13,956 bases of DNA, taken from the IMG/VR virus record IMGVR_UViG_2671181040_000015, one strand, 5' to 3'. The translations under genes were made by a program, and so were the position numbers. Position 1 is the stretch's first letter. Each line of letters opens with the position of its first letter. Positions 1 to 11,336 of the stretch are shown here, piece by piece. Source of the DNA: a virus. Taxonomy: Duplodnaviria > Heunggongvirae > Uroviricota > Caudoviricetes. The notes beneath the pieces were generated by a model. The model searched no databases. It was not told the origin of the DNA and saw only the letters and a list, made by a program, of their open reading frames with translations.

Positions 1-570
1 ACAATGCTTAATGCGCTGGCAGGTAAACAACCGCTGGACAATACGCTTACCAATTTGAGTGGAAAGGATGTAGCTGGTCTTCTCGCATACCTTGGTTTGG
101 GAGAAGGCTCTGCATTGCCTGTTGGTGTGCCTGTTCCGTGGCCTTCAGCCACTCCGCCAACAGGCTGGCTGAAATGCAATGGTGCGGCTTTTTCTGCTGA
201 AGAATACCCGGAACTGGCAAAGGCTTACCCGACAAATAAATTGCCTGATTTACGCGGTGAATTTATTCGCGGCTGGGATGACGGGCGCGGGGTTGATGTT
301 GGGCGTGCAATCTTATCATCGCAGGGCGATGCCATCAGAAATATAATTGGCAAGTTTGGTAATACTCAATTGTACCCAAGTATCTATTGTGATGGTGCAT
401 TTGGCGTCACTGTTGAGAATGTGTCACAAACTTTAGGATTAACTCTTGCGCCTTCAGGGGCAGGTAATGGGACTGTAAACTTTAGCTTTGATGCATCTAA
501 AATCGTTCCTGTTGCCACTGAAAACCGGCCGCGCAACGTCGCATTTAACTTCATTGTGAGGGCTGCATAA
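1..570 (+). CDS. Tail-fibre protein, 3' portion (5' partial, continues upstream of the window); 1..105 is the end of the constant shaft (Sc), 106..570 the variable receptor-binding C-terminus (Sv1)
   Basis: The frame is open from base 1 (ORF track 4..570) with stop TAA at 568-570. The C-terminal domain (PVGVPVPWPSATPPTGWLKCNGAAF...RGEFIRGWDDGRGVD) resembles Mu S / P2 H / e14 Stf-type fibre tips. Crossover site A lies inside the coding sequence. Confidence 0.9.
   Translation, partial: TMLNALAGKQPLDNTLTNLSGKDVAGLLAYLGLGEGSALPVGVPVPWPSATPPTGWLKCNGAAFSAEEYPELAKAYPTNKLPDLRGEFIRGWDDGRGVDVGRAILSSQGDAIRNIIGKFGNTQLYPSIYCDGAFGVTVENVSQTLGLTLAPSGAGNGTVNFSFDASKIVPVATENRPRNVAFNFIVRAA
80..105 (+). other. 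Crossover site A (gix/hix/cix-like 26-bp invertase site): TTCTCGCATACC-TT-GGTTTGGGAGAA
   Basis: Two imperfect 12-bp inverted half-sites around a 2-bp TT core. The half-site form TTCTCnnAAACC resembles remembered hixL/gixL half-sites. Sequence identity with copies B and C ends exactly at the inner edge of the site (position 105/106). Confidence 0.75.
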
Positions 571-1172
571 TGGCACAGGCAAAATTAAACAGCGAACTGA
601 TTGCCACGGTAGCGGGTGATGTGACCGTGTTTAACTACGACAGCAAGACGCGGGAATATCTTTCCACATCAACTGAATATCTTGCTGTTGGCGTCGGTAT
701 CCCGGCATGTTCTTGTTTAGATGCACCAGGTATACATAAAGCTGGTTATGCAATCTGCCGTTCAGCAGATTTAAACTCATGGGAGTATGTGCCAGACCAT
801 CGCGGTGAAATCATCTATAACACCGAAACGGGAGACGCCAAAGAAATCACAACTCCGGGTGATTACCCTGAAAATACAACCACTATCGCCCCGTTAACGC
901 CATTCGATAAATGGGATGGTGAGAAATGGGTGACCGATACTGAGGCACAGCATTGCGCCGCAGTAGACGCGGCAGAAGCACAGCGTCAGTCACTGATTGA
1001 TACTGCAATGGCTTCCATCAGTCTGATTCAACTGAAATTGCAGGCCGGGCGGAAGCTGACGCAGGCAGAAACCACCCGACTTAACGCTGTGCTGGATTAC
1101 ATTGACGCGGTGACGGCAACAGATACCAGCACCGCGCCGGATGTCATCTGGCCTGAACTGCCGGAGGCGTAG
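570..1172 (+). CDS. Tail-fibre assembly chaperone Tfa1 (partner of Sv1)
   Basis: 200-aa ORF whose ATG overlaps the fibre stop (TAATG at 568-572). Its C-terminus (LDYIDAVTATDTSTAPDVIWPELPEA) shares the motif seen in the convergent Tfa2 (LDYLDALELVDTSGAPDIEWP), and it sits in the position of Mu U / P2 G. Confidence 0.85.
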   Translation: MAQAKLNSELIATVAGDVTVFNYDSKTREYLSTSTEYLAVGVGIPACSCLDAPGIHKAGYAICRSADLNSWEYVPDHRGEIIYNTETGDAKEITTPGDYPENTTTIAPLTPFDKWDGEKWVTDTEAQHCAAVDAAEAQRQSLIDTAMASISLIQLKLQAGRKLTQAETTRLNAVLDYIDAVTATDTSTAPDVIWPELPEA

Positions 1173-1584
1173 GCCATTCAATATCTGGCGCACCGGAAGT
1201 ATCGACCAGTTCCAGTGCGTCCAGGTAATCCAGCCACAAATTATATTGCGCCAGTTCGTCACCTTTCAGACGACCAATAGCCGCTTTACCAGGCCATTGT
1301 TTACTGTTCATATAATCGTTGGCCTGATTAATCAATTGCTGCTTCTCCAGTTCGGCTGCAGCAATTTGTTCCTCATGTGTTGGTGGTGGAATTTCGGACC
1401 ATGCAGGAAAACCATTTTCTCCAGCGATACGGATTTTTCCTTTCGGCGGTAATCCGGAAAACTCAATATACACTTGCTCATCAACTTCAACAGCATCATC
1501 TGGCCATGAGTCAGCTTGAGTGTAATCCTCTTTCATCTCCAGCGGATAGAAAGAGTTTGTAGTCGCGGAATATATGTAATTCAT
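1144..1584 (-). CDS. Alternative tail-fibre assembly chaperone Tfa2 (partner of Sv2)
   Basis: 146-aa ORF convergent with Tfa1, with 3' ends overlapping by 29 bp (1144-1172). It shares the Tfa-like C-terminal motif and lies 21 bp downstream of Sv2 on the minus strand, with a GGAG Shine-Dalgarno (rc of 1589-1594). Confidence 0.8.
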   Translation of the reverse strand: MNYIYSATTNSFYPLEMKEDYTQADSWPDDAVEVDEQVYIEFSGLPPKGKIRIAGENGFPAWSEIPPPTHEEQIAAAELEKQQLINQANDYMNSKQWPGKAAIGRLKGDELAQYNLWLDYLDALELVDTSGAPDIEWPTPPAVQAR

Positions 1585-1958
1585 TTTTCACTCCATATAG
1601 CTAAATTAACAGCCTAACGCTAAAAATGAAGCGCCGAGGCCAGGAGTACTGGCTCTGGATATAAATTTAACCGGGTCGGGACTAAAACCTGCACAGGCAA
1701 TATAACCAACAGCCCCGCTATCTGGTGTGTAGTCTTGTGAGACCAAAACACGCAGACATCTGTTTGGAAATGCAATCGGGAAATGGGTTACTACATCCTG
1801 TGCAATGCCTGGTGCGCCGATTGAGCCCCACTGAAGAATAAAACCTGATGGTAATTTTTGATATCCAGTACCTGAAACAGAAAGCGTGAAGCTACCCATA
1901 TCAGGTATCTGATTCGCCCCTGTCCCTACATTCCTTTTAGCCGCTTCTCCCAAACCAA
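1408..1958. repeat. Direct repeat copy 1 (551 bp): tfa2 5' end (59 codons), intergenic spacer, Sv2 cassette and inner half of site B
   Basis: Matches 2632..3182 at a constant offset of 1224 bp; spot checks and the identical encoded peptides show no mismatch. Identity ends at 1407/2631 and at 1959/3183. Confidence 0.9.
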
Positions 1959-2808
1959 GGTATGCGAGAAGACCAGCTACATCCTTTCCACTCAAATTGG
2001 TAAGCGTATTGTCCAGCGGTTGTTTACCTGCCAGCGCATTAAGCATTGTCGTGGCAAAGTTCGGATCATTCCCCAGTGCCGCCGCCAGTTCGTTCAGTGT
2101 ATCCAGTGCAGCAGGTGCAGAACCCACCATTCCTGCAATCGCCGATTTCACAAAAGCCGTAGTGGCAATCTGTGTATTGTTGACCGACTGCGCCGCCGTG
2201 GGGGCTGTTGGCGTTCCGGTGAGTGCCGGACTCGACAACGGTGCTTTTAGTGCCAGCGCATTGTTAATGGTGGTACTGAAATTCGGATCATTGTTAATGG
2301 CTGCGGCTATTTCTTTCAGCGTGTCCAGCGTGGCTGGCGCACCATTAATAAGGGCCGTCAGTGCCGCCTGTACAAACGCAGTGGTCGCAACCTGCGTGGT
2401 ATTATTCCCCGCCGCTGGCGTTGGCGCTTTGGGGGTTCCGGTAAATGTCGGGCTGGCTTTTGGCGCGTACTGTGAATGCGGGTCCGGTGCGGCAAGATGT
2501 TTTGCCATCTGATCATCCGCGTACACCTTCAGCTCCAGTGCCTTGTCATCCACATACTTGCGGGTTGCCAGCACTACAGCAGGGTCGATTTTCAGGGTGA
2601 TATTGTCCGTGCTGCTGGTAATCAGCACCAAAAAACCATTTTCTCCAGCGATACGGATTTTTCCTTTCGGCGGTAATCCGGAAAACTCAATATACACTTG
2701 CTCATCAACTTCAACAGCATCATCTGGCCATGAGTCAGCTTGAGTGTAATCCTCTTTCATCTCCAGCGGATAGAAAGAGTTTGTAGTCGCGGAATATATG
2801 TAATTCAT
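1606..2808 (-). CDS. Chimeric 400-aa ORF: Tfa2 N-terminus (59 aa, 2808..2632), inverted tail-fibre shaft segment (about 225 aa, 2631..1971), site B, and Sv2 receptor-binding tip (1944..1606)
   Basis: Continuous ORF in the track. The N-terminal 59 aa are identical to Tfa2. The middle carries fibre-shaft repeats ([10 protein letters not shown]...LDTL.E.AAA...NDPNF). The last 35 codons before site B are identical to window positions 1..105. The C-terminus AAKRNVGTG...LALGC is a distinct fibre tip. Whether it is expressed as such is uncertain. Confidence 0.55.
1945..1970 (-). other. Crossover site B (identical to site A, inverted orientation)
   Basis: The reverse complement of 1945..1970 is TTCTCGCATACC-TT-GGTTTGGGAGAA, with the core at 1957-1958. 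Confidence 0.75.
1945..2049 (-). repeat. Inverted repeat of window positions 1..105 (end of the tail-fibre constant region, including the crossover site); it probably extends further as 2050..2631 pairs with sequence upstream of the window
   Basis: The reverse complement of 1945..2049 equals 1..105 (position p pairs with 2050-p). The identity reaches the window edge, so its true length cannot be determined here. Confidence 0.9.
2034..2495 (-). repeat. Two in-frame tandem repeat units of 231 bp (77 codons) within the inverted fibre-shaft segment
   Basis: The motif GCGCATT..AAATTCGGATCATT recurs at 2034 and 2265. The encoded peptide units are [42 protein letters not shown] and [42 protein letters not shown]. 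Confidence 0.7.
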
Positions 2809-3182
2809 TTTTCACTCCATATAGCTAAATTAACAGCCTAACGCTAAAAATGAAGCGCCGAGGCCAGGAGTACTGGCTCTGGATATAAATTTAACCGGGT
2901 CGGGACTAAAACCTGCACAGGCAATATAACCAACAGCCCCGCTATCTGGTGTGTAGTCTTGTGAGACCAAAACACGCAGACATCTGTTTGGAAATGCAAT
3001 CGGGAAATGGGTTACTACATCCTGTGCAATGCCTGGTGCGCCGATTGAGCCCCACTGAAGAATAAAACCTGATGGTAATTTTTGATATCCAGTACCTGAA
3101 ACAGAAAGCGTGAAGCTACCCATATCAGGTATCTGATTCGCCCCTGTCCCTACATTCCTTTTAGCCGCTTCTCCCAAACCAA
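2632..3182. repeat. Direct repeat copy 2 (551 bp), a duplicate of 1408..1958
   Basis: Constant offset of 1224 bp from copy 1. Contains a second tfa2 start with RBS (ATG rc at 2806-2808) and a second Sv2 cassette ending at site C. Confidence 0.9.
2830..3168 (-). other. Duplicate Sv2 cassette (promoterless fibre-tip segment adjacent to site C); it would become the fibre C-terminus after inversion between sites A and C
   Basis: Encodes AAKRNVGTG...LALGC, identical to the tip encoded at 1944..1606, with stop (rc) at 2830-2832. The ATG of the 130-aa track ORF (3222) lies outside the repeat and is probably fortuitous. Confidence 0.7.
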
Positions 3183-3194
3183 CGTTTATGAAAA
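3169..3194 (-). other. Crossover site C: reverse complement TTTTCATAAACG-TT-GGTTTGGGAGAA
   Basis: The inner half-site and core are identical to A and B. The outer half-site differs (TTTTCATAAACG) but keeps the hix-like form. It lies 55 bp upstream of the invertase start, as gix/cix sites lie beside gin/cin. Confidence 0.7.
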
Positions 3195-3249
3195 TGCAGA
3201 GATAATGGCTAACTGGCATCATCCCCGGTTTTTATTCAGGGGATTGATC
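3195..3249 (+). promoter_or_regulatory. Candidate invertase promoter and RBS region abutting site C
   Basis: GATAAT (3201-3206) is a possible -10 and AGGGGA (3238-3243) a Shine-Dalgarno 6 nt before the ATG. No convincing -35 was found, so the promoter call is weak. Confidence 0.3.
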
Positions 3250-3816
3250 ATGCTTATTGGCTATGTACGCGTGTCAACAAATGACCAGAACACCGATTTG
3301 CAACGTAATGCACTGAACTGCGCGGGATGTGAGCGGATTTTTGAGGATAAAATCAGTGGCACTAAGTCCGACAGACCGGGGCTTAAAAAACTGCTCAGGA
3401 CACTATCGGCAGGAGACACTCTGGTTGTCTGGAAGCTGGACAGACTGGGGCGCAGTATGCGGCATCTTGTTACGCTGATAGAAGAGTTGCGCCAGCGTGG
3501 CGTGAATTTCCGAAGCCTGACTGACAGTATTGATACCAGTACCCCAATGGGCCGTTTCTTTTTTCATGTTATGGGTGCCCTGGCTGAAATGGAACGCGAA
3601 CTGATAGTTGAACGTACCAGGGCAGGGCTGGCTGCAGCTCGTGCCAAAGGCAGAGTAGGTGGACGCCGTCCTAAGTTGACCACCGAACAGTGGGCACAGA
3701 TTGGGCGTTTACTTGAGGCCGGAGAATCAAGACAGCGTATTGCACTGATTTTTGATGTAGGCGTTTCTACTATTTATAGAAAATTTCCGGCAAATAAGAG
3801 CAATGAATCTCCCTGA
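3250..3816 (+). CDS. Serine DNA invertase of the Hin/Gin/Cin/Pin family
   Basis: 188 aa from the ATG at 3250 (the track ORF starts earlier at 3205). N-terminus MLIGYVRVSTNDQNTDLQRNAL carries the catalytic serine motif of resolvase/invertase enzymes, with a C-terminal helix-turn-helix region (GESRQRIALIFDVGVSTIYRK). It lies immediately beside an invertible fibre segment. Confidence 0.9.
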   Translation: MLIGYVRVSTNDQNTDLQRNALNCAGCERIFEDKISGTKSDRPGLKKLLRTLSAGDTLVVWKLDRLGRSMRHLVTLIEELRQRGVNFRSLTDSIDTSTPMGRFFFHVMGALAEMERELIVERTRAGLAAARAKGRVGGRRPKLTTEQWAQIGRLLEAGESRQRIALIFDVGVSTIYRKFPANKSNESP

Positions 3817-3864
3817 ATCAGCATTATTTTGATTATCCCTGCAAGCAGACAAATACCGTCATTT

Positions 3865-3882
3865 TGTGTGAATAACGGTACA
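3865..3882 (+). promoter_or_regulatory. P2-type late promoter activator site (TGT-N12-ACA dyad) for the FI operon (PF-like)
   Basis: TGT (3865-3867), 12 nt, ACA (3880-3882), centred about 85 bp upstream of the FI ATG. This is the spacing expected for the Ogr-dependent dyad centred near -55 with a leader of about 30 nt. Confidence 0.55.
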
Positions 3883-3958
3883 ACTGCGCTTAGCTGTTTG
3901 TCAGGCACAATCACTTCAACATAGGGCGAAGCCTAATCCAATCAGGAGGTTCGCCACT

Positions 3959-5131
3959 ATGGCTCAGGATTACCACCACGGGGTGCGCGTTGTTGAAGTC
4001 AACGAAGGCACCCGATCCATTACCACGGTGAGCACCGCCATCGTGGGTATGATCTGCACGGGCGATGATGCCGATGCAAAAATGTTTCCTCTTAATAAAC
4101 CCGTGCTGATCACTGATGTGCTGACTGCCAGCGGTAAAGCGGGTGAGTCCGGTACTCTGGCCCGTTCGCTGGATGCCATCGCTGACCAGGCAAAACCCGT
4201 GACCGTTGTTGTGCGTGTGCCGCAGGGTGAAACGGAAGACGAAACCACGACCAATATCATCGGCGCTGTGACTGCTGAAGGTAAAAAAACAGGCATGAAA
4301 GCCCTGCTATCTGCCCAGTCACAGCTCGGCGTTAAACCGCGCATTCTCGGCGTGCCAGGTCACGATAACAAAGCCGTTGCGACTGAGTTGCTGAGCGTGG
4401 CGCAAAGCCTGCGTGGGTTTGCTTACCTGTCAGCGTATGGCTGCAAGACGGTACAGGAGGCGATCACTTACCGTGAAAACTTCAGCCAGCGCGAAGGAAT
4501 GCTGATCTGGCCCGACTTTACTGGCTGGGATACGGTGTTGAATGCCGAAGCAACGGCATATGCCACCGCCCGTGCGCTTGGTCTGCGCGCCAAAATTGAT
4601 GAGCAGACCGGGTGGCACAAAAGCCTGTCCAACGTGGGCGTGAACGGTGTCACCGGAATTTCTGCAGATGTGTTCTGGGATCTGCAGGACCCGGCAACCG
4701 ATGCGGGACTGCTTAACCAGAACGACGTCACCACGCTTATCCGCAAAGACGGTTTCCGCTTCTGGGGTTCCCGCTGCCTGAGTGATGACCCGCTCTTTGC
4801 CTTCGAAAACTACACCCGCACGGCGCAGGTACTGATGGACACGATGGCAGAAGCGCATATGTGGGCGGTGGACAAACCGCTGAACCCGTCGCTGGCCCGC
4901 GACATTATCGAAGGTATCCGCGCCAAAATGCGCAGCCTGGTCAGTCAGGGGTATCTCATTGGTGGTGATTGCTGGCTGGACGAGTCGGTGAACGACAAAG
5001 ACACGCTGAAAGCCGGAAAACTCACCATCGACTATGACTACACGCCAGTGCCGCCACTTGAAAATCTGATGCTGCGTCAGCGCATCACCGATCAGTACCT
5101 GGTGAATTTTGCCAGCCAGGTCAGCGCGTAA
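3959..5131 (+). CDS. FI: Contractile tail sheath protein (P2 FI homologue)
   Basis: 390 aa, AGGAGG Shine-Dalgarno at 3944-3949. The sequence ([31 protein letters not shown]...) is close to the remembered P2 FI sequence. Confidence 0.9.
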
Positions 5132-6013: not shown

Positions 6014-6147
6014 CGGTTGACGATCTGGTGGCAGATATCGCCACCATTTTTCACTGGCCGCCATCCGTTACTGACGTTATGCCGCTGACCGAAGTGCTGG
6101 AATGGCGGTATAAAGCGATTCAGAGAAGCGGGGCCAACGATGAGTGA
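5711..6147 (+). CDS. E+E' fusion product made by a programmed -1 ribosomal frameshift at 5968-5974
   Basis: The heptamer T_TTT_TTG is in the X_XXY_YYZ register of the E frame. The -1 frame stays open from 5974 to TGA at 6145-6147 and overlaps the T start at 6140, as in P2 E/E'. Confidence 0.65.
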
Positions 6148-9100
6148 TAATAACCTGCGCCTGCAGGTCATTCTTAATGCGGTTGACAAACTCACCCGCC
6201 CATTCCGTGCTGCACAGGCCAGTTCGAAAGAGCTGGCTGGCGCAATCAGAAACTCCCGTGACGCATTAAAGCAACTCAATCAGGCGGGTAACAGCCTGGA
6301 AAAATTTCGCAAGCTGCAGGCCGATAACAAGAAGTTAGGCGACAGGCTGAACTATGCCAGACAGAAGGCTAATTTGCTTAGCTCTGAGCTGGAGGCGATG
6401 GAACAACCATCACAACGGCACCTTGTGGCTTTAGGTCGGCAAACGCTGGCAGTCCAACGCCTGGAAGAACAACAAAAATATTTGCAGAAGCAAACGGCGC
6501 TTGTGCGTGCAGAACTGTACCGGGCGGGAATTTCTGCGAAAGATGATGCGGGAGCAACTGCCCGTTTAGCCCGTGAAACATCACGTTATAACCAGGAATT
6601 GTCGAAACAGGAGGCGCGCCTGAAGCGACTGGGGGAAGCTCAGCGCAGGATGAATGCGGCGCGTGCCAGTTATGCCCGTTCGCTGGAGGTGCGCGATCGT
6701 ATTGCAGGAGCCGGAGCCACCACCACGGCTGCAGGGCTGGCAATGGGTGCGCCAGTGATGGCGGCAGTAAAAAGCTATACCAGCATGGAAGATGCCATGA
6801 AAGGTGTGGCAAAGCAGGTCAATGGTCTGCGTGACGATAATGGCAACCGCACTGCACGTTTTTATGAAATGCAGGATGCCATCAAGGCTGCCAGCGAACA
6901 GTTGCCGATGGAAAACGGTGCGGTGGACTTCGCTGCACTGGTTGAAGGTGGGGCGCGCATGAACGTCGCAAACCCTGACGACAGCTGGGAAGACCAGAAA
7001 CGTGACCTGCTGGCCTTCGCCAGCACGGCAGCAAAGGCGGCAACAGCCTTTGAGTTGCCAGCGGATGAACTGTCAGAAAGTCTGGGGAAAATCGCCCAGC
7101 TCTACAAAATCCCTACCCGCAATATTGAACAGCTCGGCGATGCGCTGAACTATCTGGATGATAACGCCATGTCGAAAGGGGCAGACATCATTGATGTGAT
7201 GCAACGTCTGGGCGGTGTGGCTGACCGTCTGGATTATCGTAAAGCGGCGGCGCTGGGTTCCACCTTCCTGACACTGGGCGCTGCGCCAGAGGTTGCAGCC
7301 AGTGCAGCAAACGCGATGGTGCGTGAATTGTCCATTGCCACCATGCAAAGCAAGAGTTTCTTTGAAGGAATGAATCTGCTGAAACTCAATCCTGAGGTGA
7401 TTGAAAAGCAGATGACGAAGGATGCGATGGGAACCATCCAGCGCGTGCTGGAGAAGGTGAACGCACTGCCGCAGGATAAGCGCCTGTCTGCCATGACCAT
7501 GTTGTTTGGTAAAGAGTTTGGCGATGATGCGGCGAAACTGGCAAACAACTTGCCGGAACTGCAGCGCCAGCTAAAACTGACAGCGGGCAATGATGCGCTC
7601 GGTTCGATGCAGAAAGAATCCGACATTAACAAGGACTCACTTTCTGCGCAGTGGTTGCTGGTTAAAACCGGAGCGCAGAACACCTTCAGCAGCCTGGGCG
7701 AAACGCTGCGCCAGCCGCTGATGGATATTCTGTACACGGTGAAAAGCATCACGGGGGCGTTGCGCCGCTGGGTGGAAGCTAACCCGGAACTGACAGGCAC
7801 ACTGGTGAAAGTAGCGGCTGTTGTGGCTGCGGTTACCGTAGGCCTCGGCACCTTAGCGGTGGCGTTGGCTGCAGTGCTGGGGCCGCTGGCAGTGATCCGT
7901 CTGGGATTCTCTGTGCTGGGTATCAAAACGTTACCTTCCGTTACGGCAGCAGTAACACGAACCAGCAGCGCGTTGTCCTGGCTGGCGCACCACTTGCACT
8001 GCTGCGACGCGGGCTTGCTTCAACGGGCAGCGCAGCGGGTTTACTTACTGCGCCGTTGTCGTCTTTGCGCCGCACGGCATCACTGACGGGAAATGTCCTG
8101 AAAACTGTAGCAGGTGCGCCGGTTGCACTTTTGCGGTCTGGATTATCCGGTTTACGTGCTGTTGCTGTGATGTTTATGAATCCACTGGCAGCACTACGCG
8201 GCGGGCTGACTGCCGCAGGCGCGGTGCTACGAGTACTGGCATCCGGTCCGCTGGTGATGCTGCGCGTTGCCCTGTATGCCGTGTCTGGTCTGTTAGGTGC
8301 TCTGCTCAGTCCGATAGGTCTTGTGGTTACTGCACTGGCGGGTGTGGCGCTGGTTGTCTGGAAATACTGGCAACCCATCACCGCGTTTCTCGGTGGTGTG
8401 GTGGAGGGATTCAAAGCAGCGGCAGGTCCCGTCAGTGCCGCGTTCGAACCACTTAAGCCTGTGTTCCAGTGGATTGGCGATAAAGTGCAGGCGTTGTGGG
8501 GCTGGTTTACTGATCTGCTGACACCCGTTAAGTCGACTTCTGCCGAACTGCAGAGCGCAGCGGAAATGGGGCGACGATTCGGGGAGGCGTTGGCGGAAGG
8601 GCTGAATATGGTTATGCATCCGCTGGACTCCCTCAAATCCGGCGTATCCTGGTTGCTGGAGAAACTCGGCGTTGTCAGTAAAGAGGCCGCAAAGGCGAAA
8701 CTACCGGAAAGTGTGACGCGTCAGCAACCTGGGACGGTGAATACAGACGGTAAAGTGATGATGCCATCGGGTGGTTTTCCGTCATGGGGATATGGCTTTG
8801 CGGGGATGTATGACAGCGGCGGCTATATCCCGCGCGGGCAGTTTGGCATCGTCGGTGAAAACGGGCCGGAAATTGTTAACGGCCCGGCAAATGTGACCAG
8901 CCGGAGAAATACAGCTGCACTGGCTGCCGTTGTTGCCGGAATGATGGGCGTTGCTGCCGCGCCAGCAGAGCTTCCACCGTTGCACCCTTTGGCACTTCCC
9001 GCGAAAGGCGGCGAAGCGATGGTGAGTCGTGCAGCCACTGTGCCGCCCGTTCACCGGATTGAGGCACCGACGCAGATCATCATTCAGACGCAGCCAGGAC

Positions 9101-9213
9101 AAAGTGCGCAGGATATTGCGCGGGAGGTGGCACGCCAGCTTGATGAACGTGAACGCAGGCTGAAGGCAAAAGCCAGGAGTAACTACAGCGATCAGGGGGG
9201 ATACGACGCATGA
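6140..9213 (+). CDS. T: Tail tape measure protein (P2 T homologue), reading frame interrupted: the track shows two overlapping ORFs, 6140..8086 and 8056..9213, that need a -1 shift to join
   Basis: Both ORFs look like tape-measure sequence (coiled-coil and Ala/Leu-rich hydrophobic stretches). The last 30 residues of the first ORF and the first 50 residues of the second frame are low-complexity junk, which places the break roughly between 7950 and 8000. Confidence 0.75.
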
Positions 9214-11101: not shown

Positions 11102-11181
11102 CGCTGTCGCCATTTTGTCGCCATCGTTAAAAAACAGTGCTTCTAACATCATGATTTTAAACAGCATAAATTTCAGGCAAC

Positions 11182-11224
11182 AAAAAACCCATCAACCTTG
11201 AACCGAAATGGCGGGGTTGATGGG
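11182..11224 (-). terminator. Rho-independent terminator on the minus strand, downstream of ybjL
   Basis: Perfect 10-bp stem (11188-11197 and 11215-11224, CCCATCAACC / GGTTGATGGG) followed on the minus strand by a run of 6 T (complement of A at 11182-11187). Confidence 0.6.
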
Positions 11225-11336
11225 CTCCACAAAATGGGGACATCAAAGAAAAGCAGTGGCACTAATTAAGACTGATGCCCTGCGGAAAAGTTCTGCGGTT
11301 GTGCAAAAAAATTTCATTTTCAGGGCAACTTCAGTT

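Follow-up and report, generated by a model that had tools for sequence, protein, structure and literature searches.

An apparent third crossover site in the tail-fibre switch of a P2-like Escherichia coli prophage traced to a probable single-base scaffold join

The window analysed here, a stretch of 13,956 nucleotides, opens inside a tail-fibre locus. Its first 570 nt (1-570, plus strand) hold the 3' part of the tail-fibre gene H (ORF 4-570; Pfam Collar PF07484, 8e-16; 99.7% identity to the SL124 H gene), namely 91 nt from the end of the constant fibre region (Sc), followed by crossover site A and the variable C-terminus Sv1, which is of the tail-collar type. This is followed by Tfa1, the tail-fibre assembly chaperone cognate to Sv1 (570-1172, plus strand; Pfam Caudo_TAP, 8.6e-32). 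On the minus strand lie Tfa2, the chaperone cognate to Sv2 (1144-1584; Caudo_TAP, 1.5e-37), here in the silent orientation, and the alternative fibre C-terminus Sv2 itself, whose first appearance (1606-1944; Pfam Gp53-like_C) is identical to 2830-3168. Beyond it, 687 bp of the constant region recur as their reverse complement (1944-2630, minus strand), corresponding to H residues about 127-354; in blastn this copy aligns with positions 2420-3106 of the SL124 locus (L001) at 99.85%, with H residues 127-347 read identically. The stretch from 2632 to 3182 is the second copy of a 551-bp repeat, containing Tfa2 codons 1-59, Sv2, an inner half-site and the core, and a DNA invertase gene completes the module. 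A scan for promoters and terminators over positions 1-4000 returned no more hits than shuffled sequence.

The invertase (3250-3816, plus strand) is an intact protein of 188 aa that combines a resolvase catalytic domain bearing the active-site serine (Pfam Resolvase PF00239, 2.2e-53) with a C-terminal HTH (HTH_7 PF02796, 1.4e-15), and is thus a small serine recombinase of the Pin/Gin family. In a full-length alignment to the Gin structures 3UJ3 and 4M6F (E about 1e-92) it keeps the catalytic Ser10 and the conserved VRVSTNDQ motif, and it is 87% identical to PinE, 83% to the invertase of the EPEC P2-like prophage and 75% to Gin (over 185 residues). The comparison with Gin and Pin proposed in the initial annotation therefore came out in its favour, as did its placement of a serine invertase 55 bp past site C, with the ATG at 3250. 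Switches of the Gin/Pin/Cin/Hin type have, in cis, a recombinational enhancer bound by Fis, which lies within the 5' part of the invertase gene at a distance of about 100 bp from a site. A scan of the gene with the Fis consensus, using the native enhancer spacing from PMC4817059, found one Fis-like 15-mer (nt 71-85), at the same position as in Mu gin, in a motif that is very degenerate and overlaps coding sequence; a search for a second at the expected spacing gave none that was convincing, with the same degeneracy and coding overlap applying.

The half-site GGTTTGGGAGAA is present three times, at 94-105 (plus strand), 1945-1956 (minus) and 3169-3180 (minus), against a chance expectation of 0.06. 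Around these copies we recovered all three 26-bp sites described earlier, with their shared inner half-site and TT core: A (80-105, plus strand) and B (1945-1970, minus strand), which are identical in 26/26 positions and read TTCTCGCATACC-TT-GGTTTGGGAGAA, and C (3169-3194, minus strand), which reads TTTTCATAAACG-TT-GGTTTGGGAGAA. Comparison of the 26-mers bears out that A is inverted relative to both B and C. When aligned to known sites, C proved identical to e14 pixR (26/26) and A matched pixL at 23/26 positions, while each matched Mu gix at 17/26; both have the 26-bp length, the 12-bp half-sites and a TT core in matching register that characterize Gin/Pin-type sites. A and C, the left and right sites of the real switch, bracket the alternative C-termini and their cognate tfa genes in frame with the constant 5' part of the fibre (ORF map, Pfam), and in-silico flipping yields either the 508-aa H-Sv1 with Tfa1 or the 466-aa H-Sv2 with Tfa2. 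The intact Pin/Gin-family enzyme and the pix/gix-like sites support the invertase-driven tail-fibre switch that had been predicted. Site B has a setting that had been overlooked: it is no isolated 26-mer and is embedded in the inverted 687-bp copy of the constant region.

The provenance of the window bears directly on site B. An exact look-up of its 648-aa tape-measure fragment returned one record only, the draft CYFW01000004.1 (GCA_001283465.1), of which the whole window constitutes positions 2-13957. The sole mismatch in 13,956 bases is window position 2631 (record position 2632), which is 'A' in the window and 'N' in the record. This base parts what we term contig P1 (1-2630) from contig P2 (2632 onward). 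The sequences on its two sides, the Sc' end ...CAGCACCA and the Tfa2' start AAAACCATTTT, are adjacent nowhere else and have neither homology nor a core dinucleotide in common. A 30-mer across the joint was absent from the viral, genome and metagenome collections, the junction was spanned in 0 of 5426 complete E. coli genomes, and no phage record covering at least 80% of the region was found. As origins of the joint we rejected crossover by the invertase at pseudo-sites (no shared core dinucleotide, and one extra base needed, which is incompatible with conservative exchange) and microhomology or template switching (ACCATGC lies near in both parents, yet was left unused by the joint).

Window position 1 is the record's second base. 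The record itself begins 81 nt ahead of site A, and its opening 107 nt repeat its positions 1945-2051 as a reverse complement; P1 is hence a segment capped by Sc at both ends, the form that an assembly-graph path across a population of mixed orientation should take. The three-site layout hangs entirely on the 2630/2632 joint, which was never sequenced, so that the three sites share the written sequence but not demonstrably a single DNA molecule. We accordingly read position 2631 as a one-N scaffold join and the contiguity of B and C in the window as apparent rather than real. Site B, composed of the Sc outer half and the Sv2-side inner half, would then be the left joint of the flipped state and not an extra genomic site.

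The repeat points in the same direction. Positions 1408-1958 and 2632-3182 form a perfect direct repeat (551/551) whose identity stops exactly at the core dinucleotide, the behaviour of a contig overlap that diverges where two states diverge. The 'duplicate Sv2 cassette' of the initial annotation is therefore present in the text as a 551-bp repeat, which also takes in 59 Tfa2 codons; as a real duplicate it falls away, for it appears to be the unmerged 551-nt overlap of P1 and P2, the same genomic DNA written twice. The inverted copy at 1944-2630 would be the rightward extension of P1 into Sc, from flipped-state reads. The 400-aa ORF on the minus strand (1606-2808), a chimera of Tfa2 1-59, a junction codon, H 127-354 and Sv2, would be a by-product of the false join and is not to be taken as a gene. 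Its exact look-up gave no match, since the junction codon holds the N and the recorded product therefore has an X at that point. The A-B and A-C inversions, previously treated as separate events, yield identical H-Sv2 products, and with the overlap merged they collapse into a single inversion between two sites.

Relatives display the two-site arrangement directly. Among complete genomes SL124 comes closest, at 99.8% identity; it carries two sites and is shorter by exactly 1224 bp. Deleting 1224 bp from the window gives exactly its arrangement, and no genome covers the query beyond the 83% (in two pieces) that SL124 does. The Sc-Sv1 joint is contiguous in 380 complete E. coli genomes and the Sc-Sv2 joint in 24. 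That inversion would join the constant shaft to Sv2, followed immediately by Tfa2, had been predicted, and this state is real: strain NRZ14408 has this flipped arrangement complete, together with an identical invertase protein. Among the related IMG/VR loci with at least 4.5 kb of upstream sequence, exactly two sites were found in 44 of 51 and three in none; the window's arrangement was equally absent from the 5426 complete E. coli genomes, the only look-alikes being N-joined scaffolds. One of these, in an independent draft (L050), has the order Sc (76)-A-segment-B-Sc' (about 640), with the N still visible, followed by an overlapping piece that runs through C and the invertase; a second (L023) is similar. 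Both were discarded as natural three-site relatives on account of their N joins, and a third candidate (L066) was discarded as an IS-disrupted Mu-like contig with no clean three-site switch.

Taken as a whole, the locus would be an ordinary two-site Pin-type invertible tail-fibre segment of a P2-like E. coli prophage adjoining rybB/ybjL, with the order H constant region, site, [Sv1-Tfa1-Tfa2'-Sv2'], site, invertase. We assign a probability of roughly 0.7 to the reading that the third site reflects two contigs, carrying between them both orientations of this switch, joined over a one-base gap. The isolate would have been sequenced with short reads from DNA that most likely held the segment in both orientations, and the assembler would have emitted two pieces. 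P1, a 2.6-kb contig, would consist of the invertible segment with stretches of the constant fibre region on either side, its left end drawn from Sc-Sv1 reads of one orientation and its right end from Sc-Sv2 reads of the other, the latter presumably supplied by a flipped sub-population of the same culture. P2 would be the large chromosomal contig, starting 551 nt inside the segment and reading across the right site and on into the invertase. A scaffolder would then have set P1 before P2 with a single N between them, which is shown as 'A' in the window, leaving the 551-nt overlap unmerged and thereby creating the apparent third site, the apparent second Sv2 cassette and the chimeric ORF. Thus, site B and the second Sv2, on which the claim of three sites instead of two rested, would both stem from contigs joined across a single N. 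The software behind the join may have been of the type of SSPACE and GapFiller, greedy tools capable of false joins and N gaps (PMC5320598).

There is close precedent in the EC958 prophages Phi1, Phi2 and Phi4 (Forde et al. 2014, PMC4134206), which have the same class of switch with 26-bp sites. Their segments switch at high frequency in culture, with about half of the reads in each orientation, giving rise to spurious extra contigs, and the authors warn that merging alternative-orientation contigs creates artefactual duplications. EC958 was assembled from PacBio data and its extra contigs stayed separate, whereas here a scaffolder appears to have joined them in the draft record.

The Sc-Sv2 joint (site B with the 687-bp Sc') might instead have come, through the same scaffolding artefact, from a second P2-like prophage in the same genome. 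In such a prophage the same fibre module would stand in the opposite orientation, either permanently or as its resting state, and active switching in the culture would not be implied. This explains the N join and the overlap equally well, and an E. coli genome has related fibre and invertase modules at a median of 2 locations (maximum 11). It demands, however, that a second copy match for 1.2 kb or more without a difference (551/551 and 106/106), and high-frequency inversion in culture is the documented norm for such segments (PMC4134206, PMC4272514); we consider this source unlikely.

Considerably less probable is that the sequence represents real DNA, namely a tandem duplication of 1223 bp that arose while the segment was flipped (taking in the final 687 bp of Sc, the left site, Sv2 and the first 59 codons of Tfa2) and was followed by inversion between the outermost sites, the N being an uncalled base at the joint. 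The outcome would be three usable sites and four interconvertible states, whose products can all be enumerated; site B, being identical to A, would be predicted to be competent, and a single N could in principle be an ambiguous call within truly contiguous sequence. In-silico flipping between A and C with the SL124 upstream sequence added gives a perfect tandem repeat of period 1224, and a model built from canonical flipped SL124 plus the duplication disagrees with the sequence at just 7 positions in 8000. A backward same-direction false join, however, always mimics a tandem duplication, and hence this fit does not discriminate. We demoted the duplication-inversion account, although it reproduces the sequence, since the only base documenting the joint is an N near the start of a draft record that begins at the switch locus; moreover, the identical layout with visible Ns recurs in the unrelated draft L050, and no other sequence in the collections searched carries the joint. 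Were it true, a two-site fibre switch would have been caught gaining a third usable site, with a chimeric Tfa::fibre ORF, a plausible first step toward multi-site systems such as Min or that of EPEC. A three-site host-range switch shaped by evolution, its third site adding a selectable arrangement as in Min or the EPEC P2 module, is scarcely credible despite three competent-looking sites with matching TT cores and the existence of genuine three-site P2-like switches (PMC4272514; locus L085), given that the third site fronts no new cassette and gives the same H-Sv2 product, that B is flanked by a truncated inverted constant-region piece and a truncated tfa, and that the arrangement is missing in all relatives searched and depends on the N join.

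The real switch has clear counterparts. It resembles the e14 P segment of E. coli K-12 with its invertase PinE both in the similarity of enzyme and sites and in the layout (fibre constant part, site, Sv-Tfa / Tfa'-Sv', site, invertase); unlike the e14 element, it lies in a P2-like tail cluster (V-W-J-I-H ... sheath, tube, tape measure, U, D, ogr). With Mu G and Gin, and also P1 C and Cin, it shares the catalytic serine motif and 26-bp sites with 12-bp half-sites and a 2-bp core, placed about 69 bp upstream of the invertase ATG as in Mu, but its core is TT rather than the TC of Mu and its segment measures about 1.9 kb against 3 kb. The Min system of p15B has the same invertase family and the same tail-fibre cassette logic, with six genuine crossover sites and many isomers, whereas nothing here points to more than two genuine sites. 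The Min consensus is quoted in PMC4134206.

The remark in the initial annotation that multi-site systems are known mainly from Min and shufflons was incomplete, as a P2-like prophage of EPEC E2348/69 has an invertible module with three repeats and four variants (Goldberg et al. 2014, PMC4272514). This module likewise sits in a P2-like tail cluster beside its invertase and has TT-core sites of the same family. Its three sites, however, lie in one finished chromosome and serve three different C-termini, with all four variants recovered by PCR (PMC4272514), whereas the third site of the window owes its existence to the scaffold join alone and has a duplicate next to it: the N is the sole link between B and C, and the sequences behind them are identical, as against three distinct cassettes in EPEC.

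A genuine three-site version in a P2-like prophage has thus been in the literature since 2014. The wider lesson is that invertible prophage segments repeatedly give rise to false duplications, phantom crossover sites and chimeric ORFs when draft genomes are scaffolded; the same artefact is seen at this locus in at least two other drafts (L050 and L023), and a single N, or a base put in its place, can conceal a scaffold join from a reader of the raw sequence. The third site is most likely not a real feature; the genuine part is a phage host-range switch of a well-known kind. Both of its orientations occur across genomes and both joints were also assembled from the present isolate; while the two joints might instead reflect a second related prophage, their assembly from one isolate suggests that the switch was flipping in the sequenced culture.

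The first 3816 nt of the window (1-3816) cover the distal part of a tail gene cluster of the P2 type. It comprises the 3′ part of the fibre gene H (ORF 4-570), which codes for a tail-collar domain, the gene for the chaperone Tfa1 (570-1172), two elements on the strand opposite to Tfa1, namely the second chaperone gene, Tfa2 (1144-1584), and Sv2, a gp53-like fibre C-terminus, and finally a gene for a serine recombinase of 188 aa (3250-3816). The genes for the sheath, tube, E/E′, tape measure, U, D and ogr lie 3′ of this invertase. The right end of the prophage is marked by the RybB sRNA gene (11179-11257, minus strand; Rfam, 105 bits) directly after ogr, with ybjL, ybjM and grxA beyond, and rybB/ybjL is the insertion position both here and in E. 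coli SL124, the closest complete genome.

The recombinase can be aligned over its full length with the sequences of the Gin crystal structures (E ~1e-92), keeps the VRVSTNDQ active-site motif, and is 87% identical to PinE of e14, 83% to its counterpart in the EPEC P2-like prophage and 75% to Gin. The 12-mer GGTTTGGGAGAA occurs three times in the window, at 94 (+), 1945 (−) and 3169 (−), against a chance expectation of 0.06. Re-finding the 12-mer and 26-mer positions confirmed the coordinates, orientations and distances of the three crossover sites that had been proposed: A (80-105, +), B (1945-1970, −) and C (3169-3194, −), with A inverted relative to both B and C. Sites A and B read TTCTCGCATACC-TT-GGTTTGGGAGAA and site C reads TTTTCATAAACG-TT-GGTTTGGGAGAA. 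Their suggested kinship to known invertase sites likewise held on alignment: site C is identical to e14 pixR at 26/26 positions, site A matches pixL at 23/26, and A and C each match Mu gix, taken straight from the Mu record, at 17/26. Among close relatives (the SL124 locus L001 and many IMG/VR loci), the outer half of the left site is variable (TTCTCGCATACC versus TTCTCACATACC, window 85), with its inner half and TT core nearly invariant. A search for a Fis enhancer at the locus gave no convincing candidate. Wild-type invertases of the Gin/Pin kind depend on a Fis/enhancer synapse, and equal deletion and inversion are seen only in hyperactive mutants (PMC4817059), which bears on the earlier idea of a B-C deletion.

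Rather than standing alone as a 26-mer, site B is embedded in a 687-bp reverse-complement copy (1944-2630) of the constant part (Sc) of gene H, covering approximately residues 127-354. The supposed duplicate Sv2 cassette is a 551-bp perfect direct repeat (1408-1958 = 2632-3182) that begins at codon 59 within Tfa2 and stops precisely at the B and C core dinucleotide. No new cassette lies behind the third site. The inverted Sc copy (Sc′) meets the second repeat as ...CAGCACCA / A / AAAACCATTTT..., with no homology and one unaccounted base. The first 79 nt of that repeat (2632-2710 = 1408-1486), coding for the Tfa2 N-terminus, match yfdK of the K-12 CPS-53 prophage at 100% identity, as they do the tfa genes of ~1500 genomes.

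The origin of the unaccounted base emerged from the source record. The tape-measure gene (6140-9213) is broken by a 4-nt deletion at ~7977, with one CTGG unit lost from CTGGCTGGCTGG relative to SL124, leaving ORFs of 648 aa and 385 aa versus a single 1025-aa CDS in SL124; if real, this deletion probably prevents the prophage from building tails. Used as a strain-specific tag for exact look-up, the 648-aa fragment matches one record, the 216,738-bp draft CYFW01000004.1 (GCA_001283465.1), with the gene at 6141-8087; hence, the window corresponds to record positions 2-13957. The record starts inside gene H, one base ahead of the window, with 107 nt at its start that repeat record 1945-2051 in reverse complement. 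Over all 13,956 bases, the sole mismatch is the 'A' at window 2631, which is 'N' at record position 2632, and this is exactly the unaccounted base at the joint. The joint at 2631 was therefore never sequenced: it is a one-N join of two contigs, and the N was swapped for a base somewhere before analysis, which conceals the scaffold join from readers of the raw sequence. Thus, B and C do not lie on one sequenced molecule, and the claim of three sites instead of two fails; the three-site arrangement is not real but an artefact of scaffolding, and what underlies it is a known two-site switch.

In our reconstruction, the first contig (P1, 1-2630) is the invertible segment with constant region at either end, joined on the left to the alternative C-terminus Sv1 (the Sc-Sv1 joint) and on the right to Sv2 (the Sc-Sv2 joint). 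No canonical single molecule has this shape, which is instead assembler output when reads of both orientations coexist. The second (P2, 2632 onward) is the chromosomal contig, entering the segment by 551 nt from the invertase side; shared stretches such as 2632-2710 probably explain its start point. The two represent the same DNA over these 551 nt, parting at the crossover core as the two states themselves do, and were unmergeable because P1 ends in Sc′ rather than in the invertase flank, such that the scaffolder tied them via read pairs with one N left. With the overlap collapsed, 1224 bp drop out and the arrangement is exactly that of SL124. As P1 holds an Sc-Sv2 joint, such a joint was present in the reads of the isolate. 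While a second related prophage could have supplied it, since the median genome carries related modules in two places, its source is most likely a flipped sub-population.

Both states of a two-site switch are seen in relatives. An unbroken Sc-Sv1 joint occurs in 380 complete E. coli genomes and an unbroken Sc-Sv2 joint in 24, with strain NRZ14408 carrying the entire flipped locus, namely H-Sv2 (466 aa), Tfa2, Tfa1′ and Sv1′ (primes denoting the opposite strand), then an identical invertase protein. In SL124 (99.8% identity), the locus is smaller by exactly 1224 bp, with the two canonical sites. Exactly two sites are present in 44 of the 51 related IMG/VR loci whose upstream sequence reaches 4.5 kb or more, and three in none; the three-site arrangement is absent from relatives. 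The invertible segment (query 89-3182, site to site) also occurs in other prophages with different flanks and no adjoining matching invertase (E. coli genome matches H2 and H17-H26, e.g., NZ_CP157093.1 3172490-3175031), a pattern that fits exchange of cassettes at the crossover sites.

A real 1223-bp tandem duplication, with the lone N an uncalled base in contiguous sequence, appears very improbable. An in silico A-C inversion joined to the SL124 upstream sequence does yield a perfect tandem repeat with a period of 1224, and a model combining the canonical flipped locus, a 1223-bp tandem duplication and one filler base mismatches at 7 of 8000 positions. However, the joint has no second occurrence: searches of the viral, genome and metagenome contig collections did not find it, not one of 5426 complete E. 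coli genomes reads across it, and no phage record covers at least 80% of the region. Enumeration showed that such a layout could reach four states, H-Sv1 in one and H-Sv2 in the other three, with a predicted chimeric ORF, Tfa2(1-59)::H(127-354)::Sv. A real rearrangement was our initial model, displaced once window 2631 proved to be 'N' in the record.

The same layout, with its Ns still visible, is found in a separate draft genome (L050, IMGVR_UViG_2747843111_000001). Its first part reads Sc (76), A, segment, B, Sc′ (about 640), followed by an N; next comes an overlapping piece, with 949 nt repeated, that extends across site C and both the invertase and sheath genes, then another N and B-Sc′ again. 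L023 (IMGVR_UViG_2693429728_000004) is a variant of this pattern. These "viral contigs", draft-derived and from this same locus, are alternative-orientation contigs strung together by single Ns (L050 2523 and 5198; L023 2494 and 4146), yielding phantom extra crossover sites and duplicated cassettes. A further locus (L066, IMGVR_UViG_2695420595_000022, 1-4800) opens with a 52-nt inverted copy of the right site and invertase flank, which is a flipped-state right joint. It has a Mu gp48-like gene and a short fibre gene on the minus strand and an IS3-family transposase (3340-4086) between a middle site and the invertase; its arrangement is rearranged or IS-disrupted. In EC958, the PacBio reads at switches of the same sort were split about equally between the orientations and gave spurious extra contigs, the integration of which is said to create artefactual duplications in phage regions (Forde et al., PMC4134206). 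SSPACE and GapFiller are described as greedy tools that are prone to false joins and that place N gaps where contigs are linked (Page et al., PMC5320598).

Even if real, a three-site switch would not be new in kind, because the P2-like prophage of EPEC E2348/69 has a published three-repeat, four-variant switch established by sequencing and PCR (Goldberg et al., PMC4272514); we confirmed three TT-core sites in its finished genome. The real feature here is an ordinary, well-supported member of the Pin/Gin family of tail-fibre switches, the closest known system being the e14 P segment. If its Sc-Sv2 joint does come from a flipped sub-population, the switch would be active in culture.
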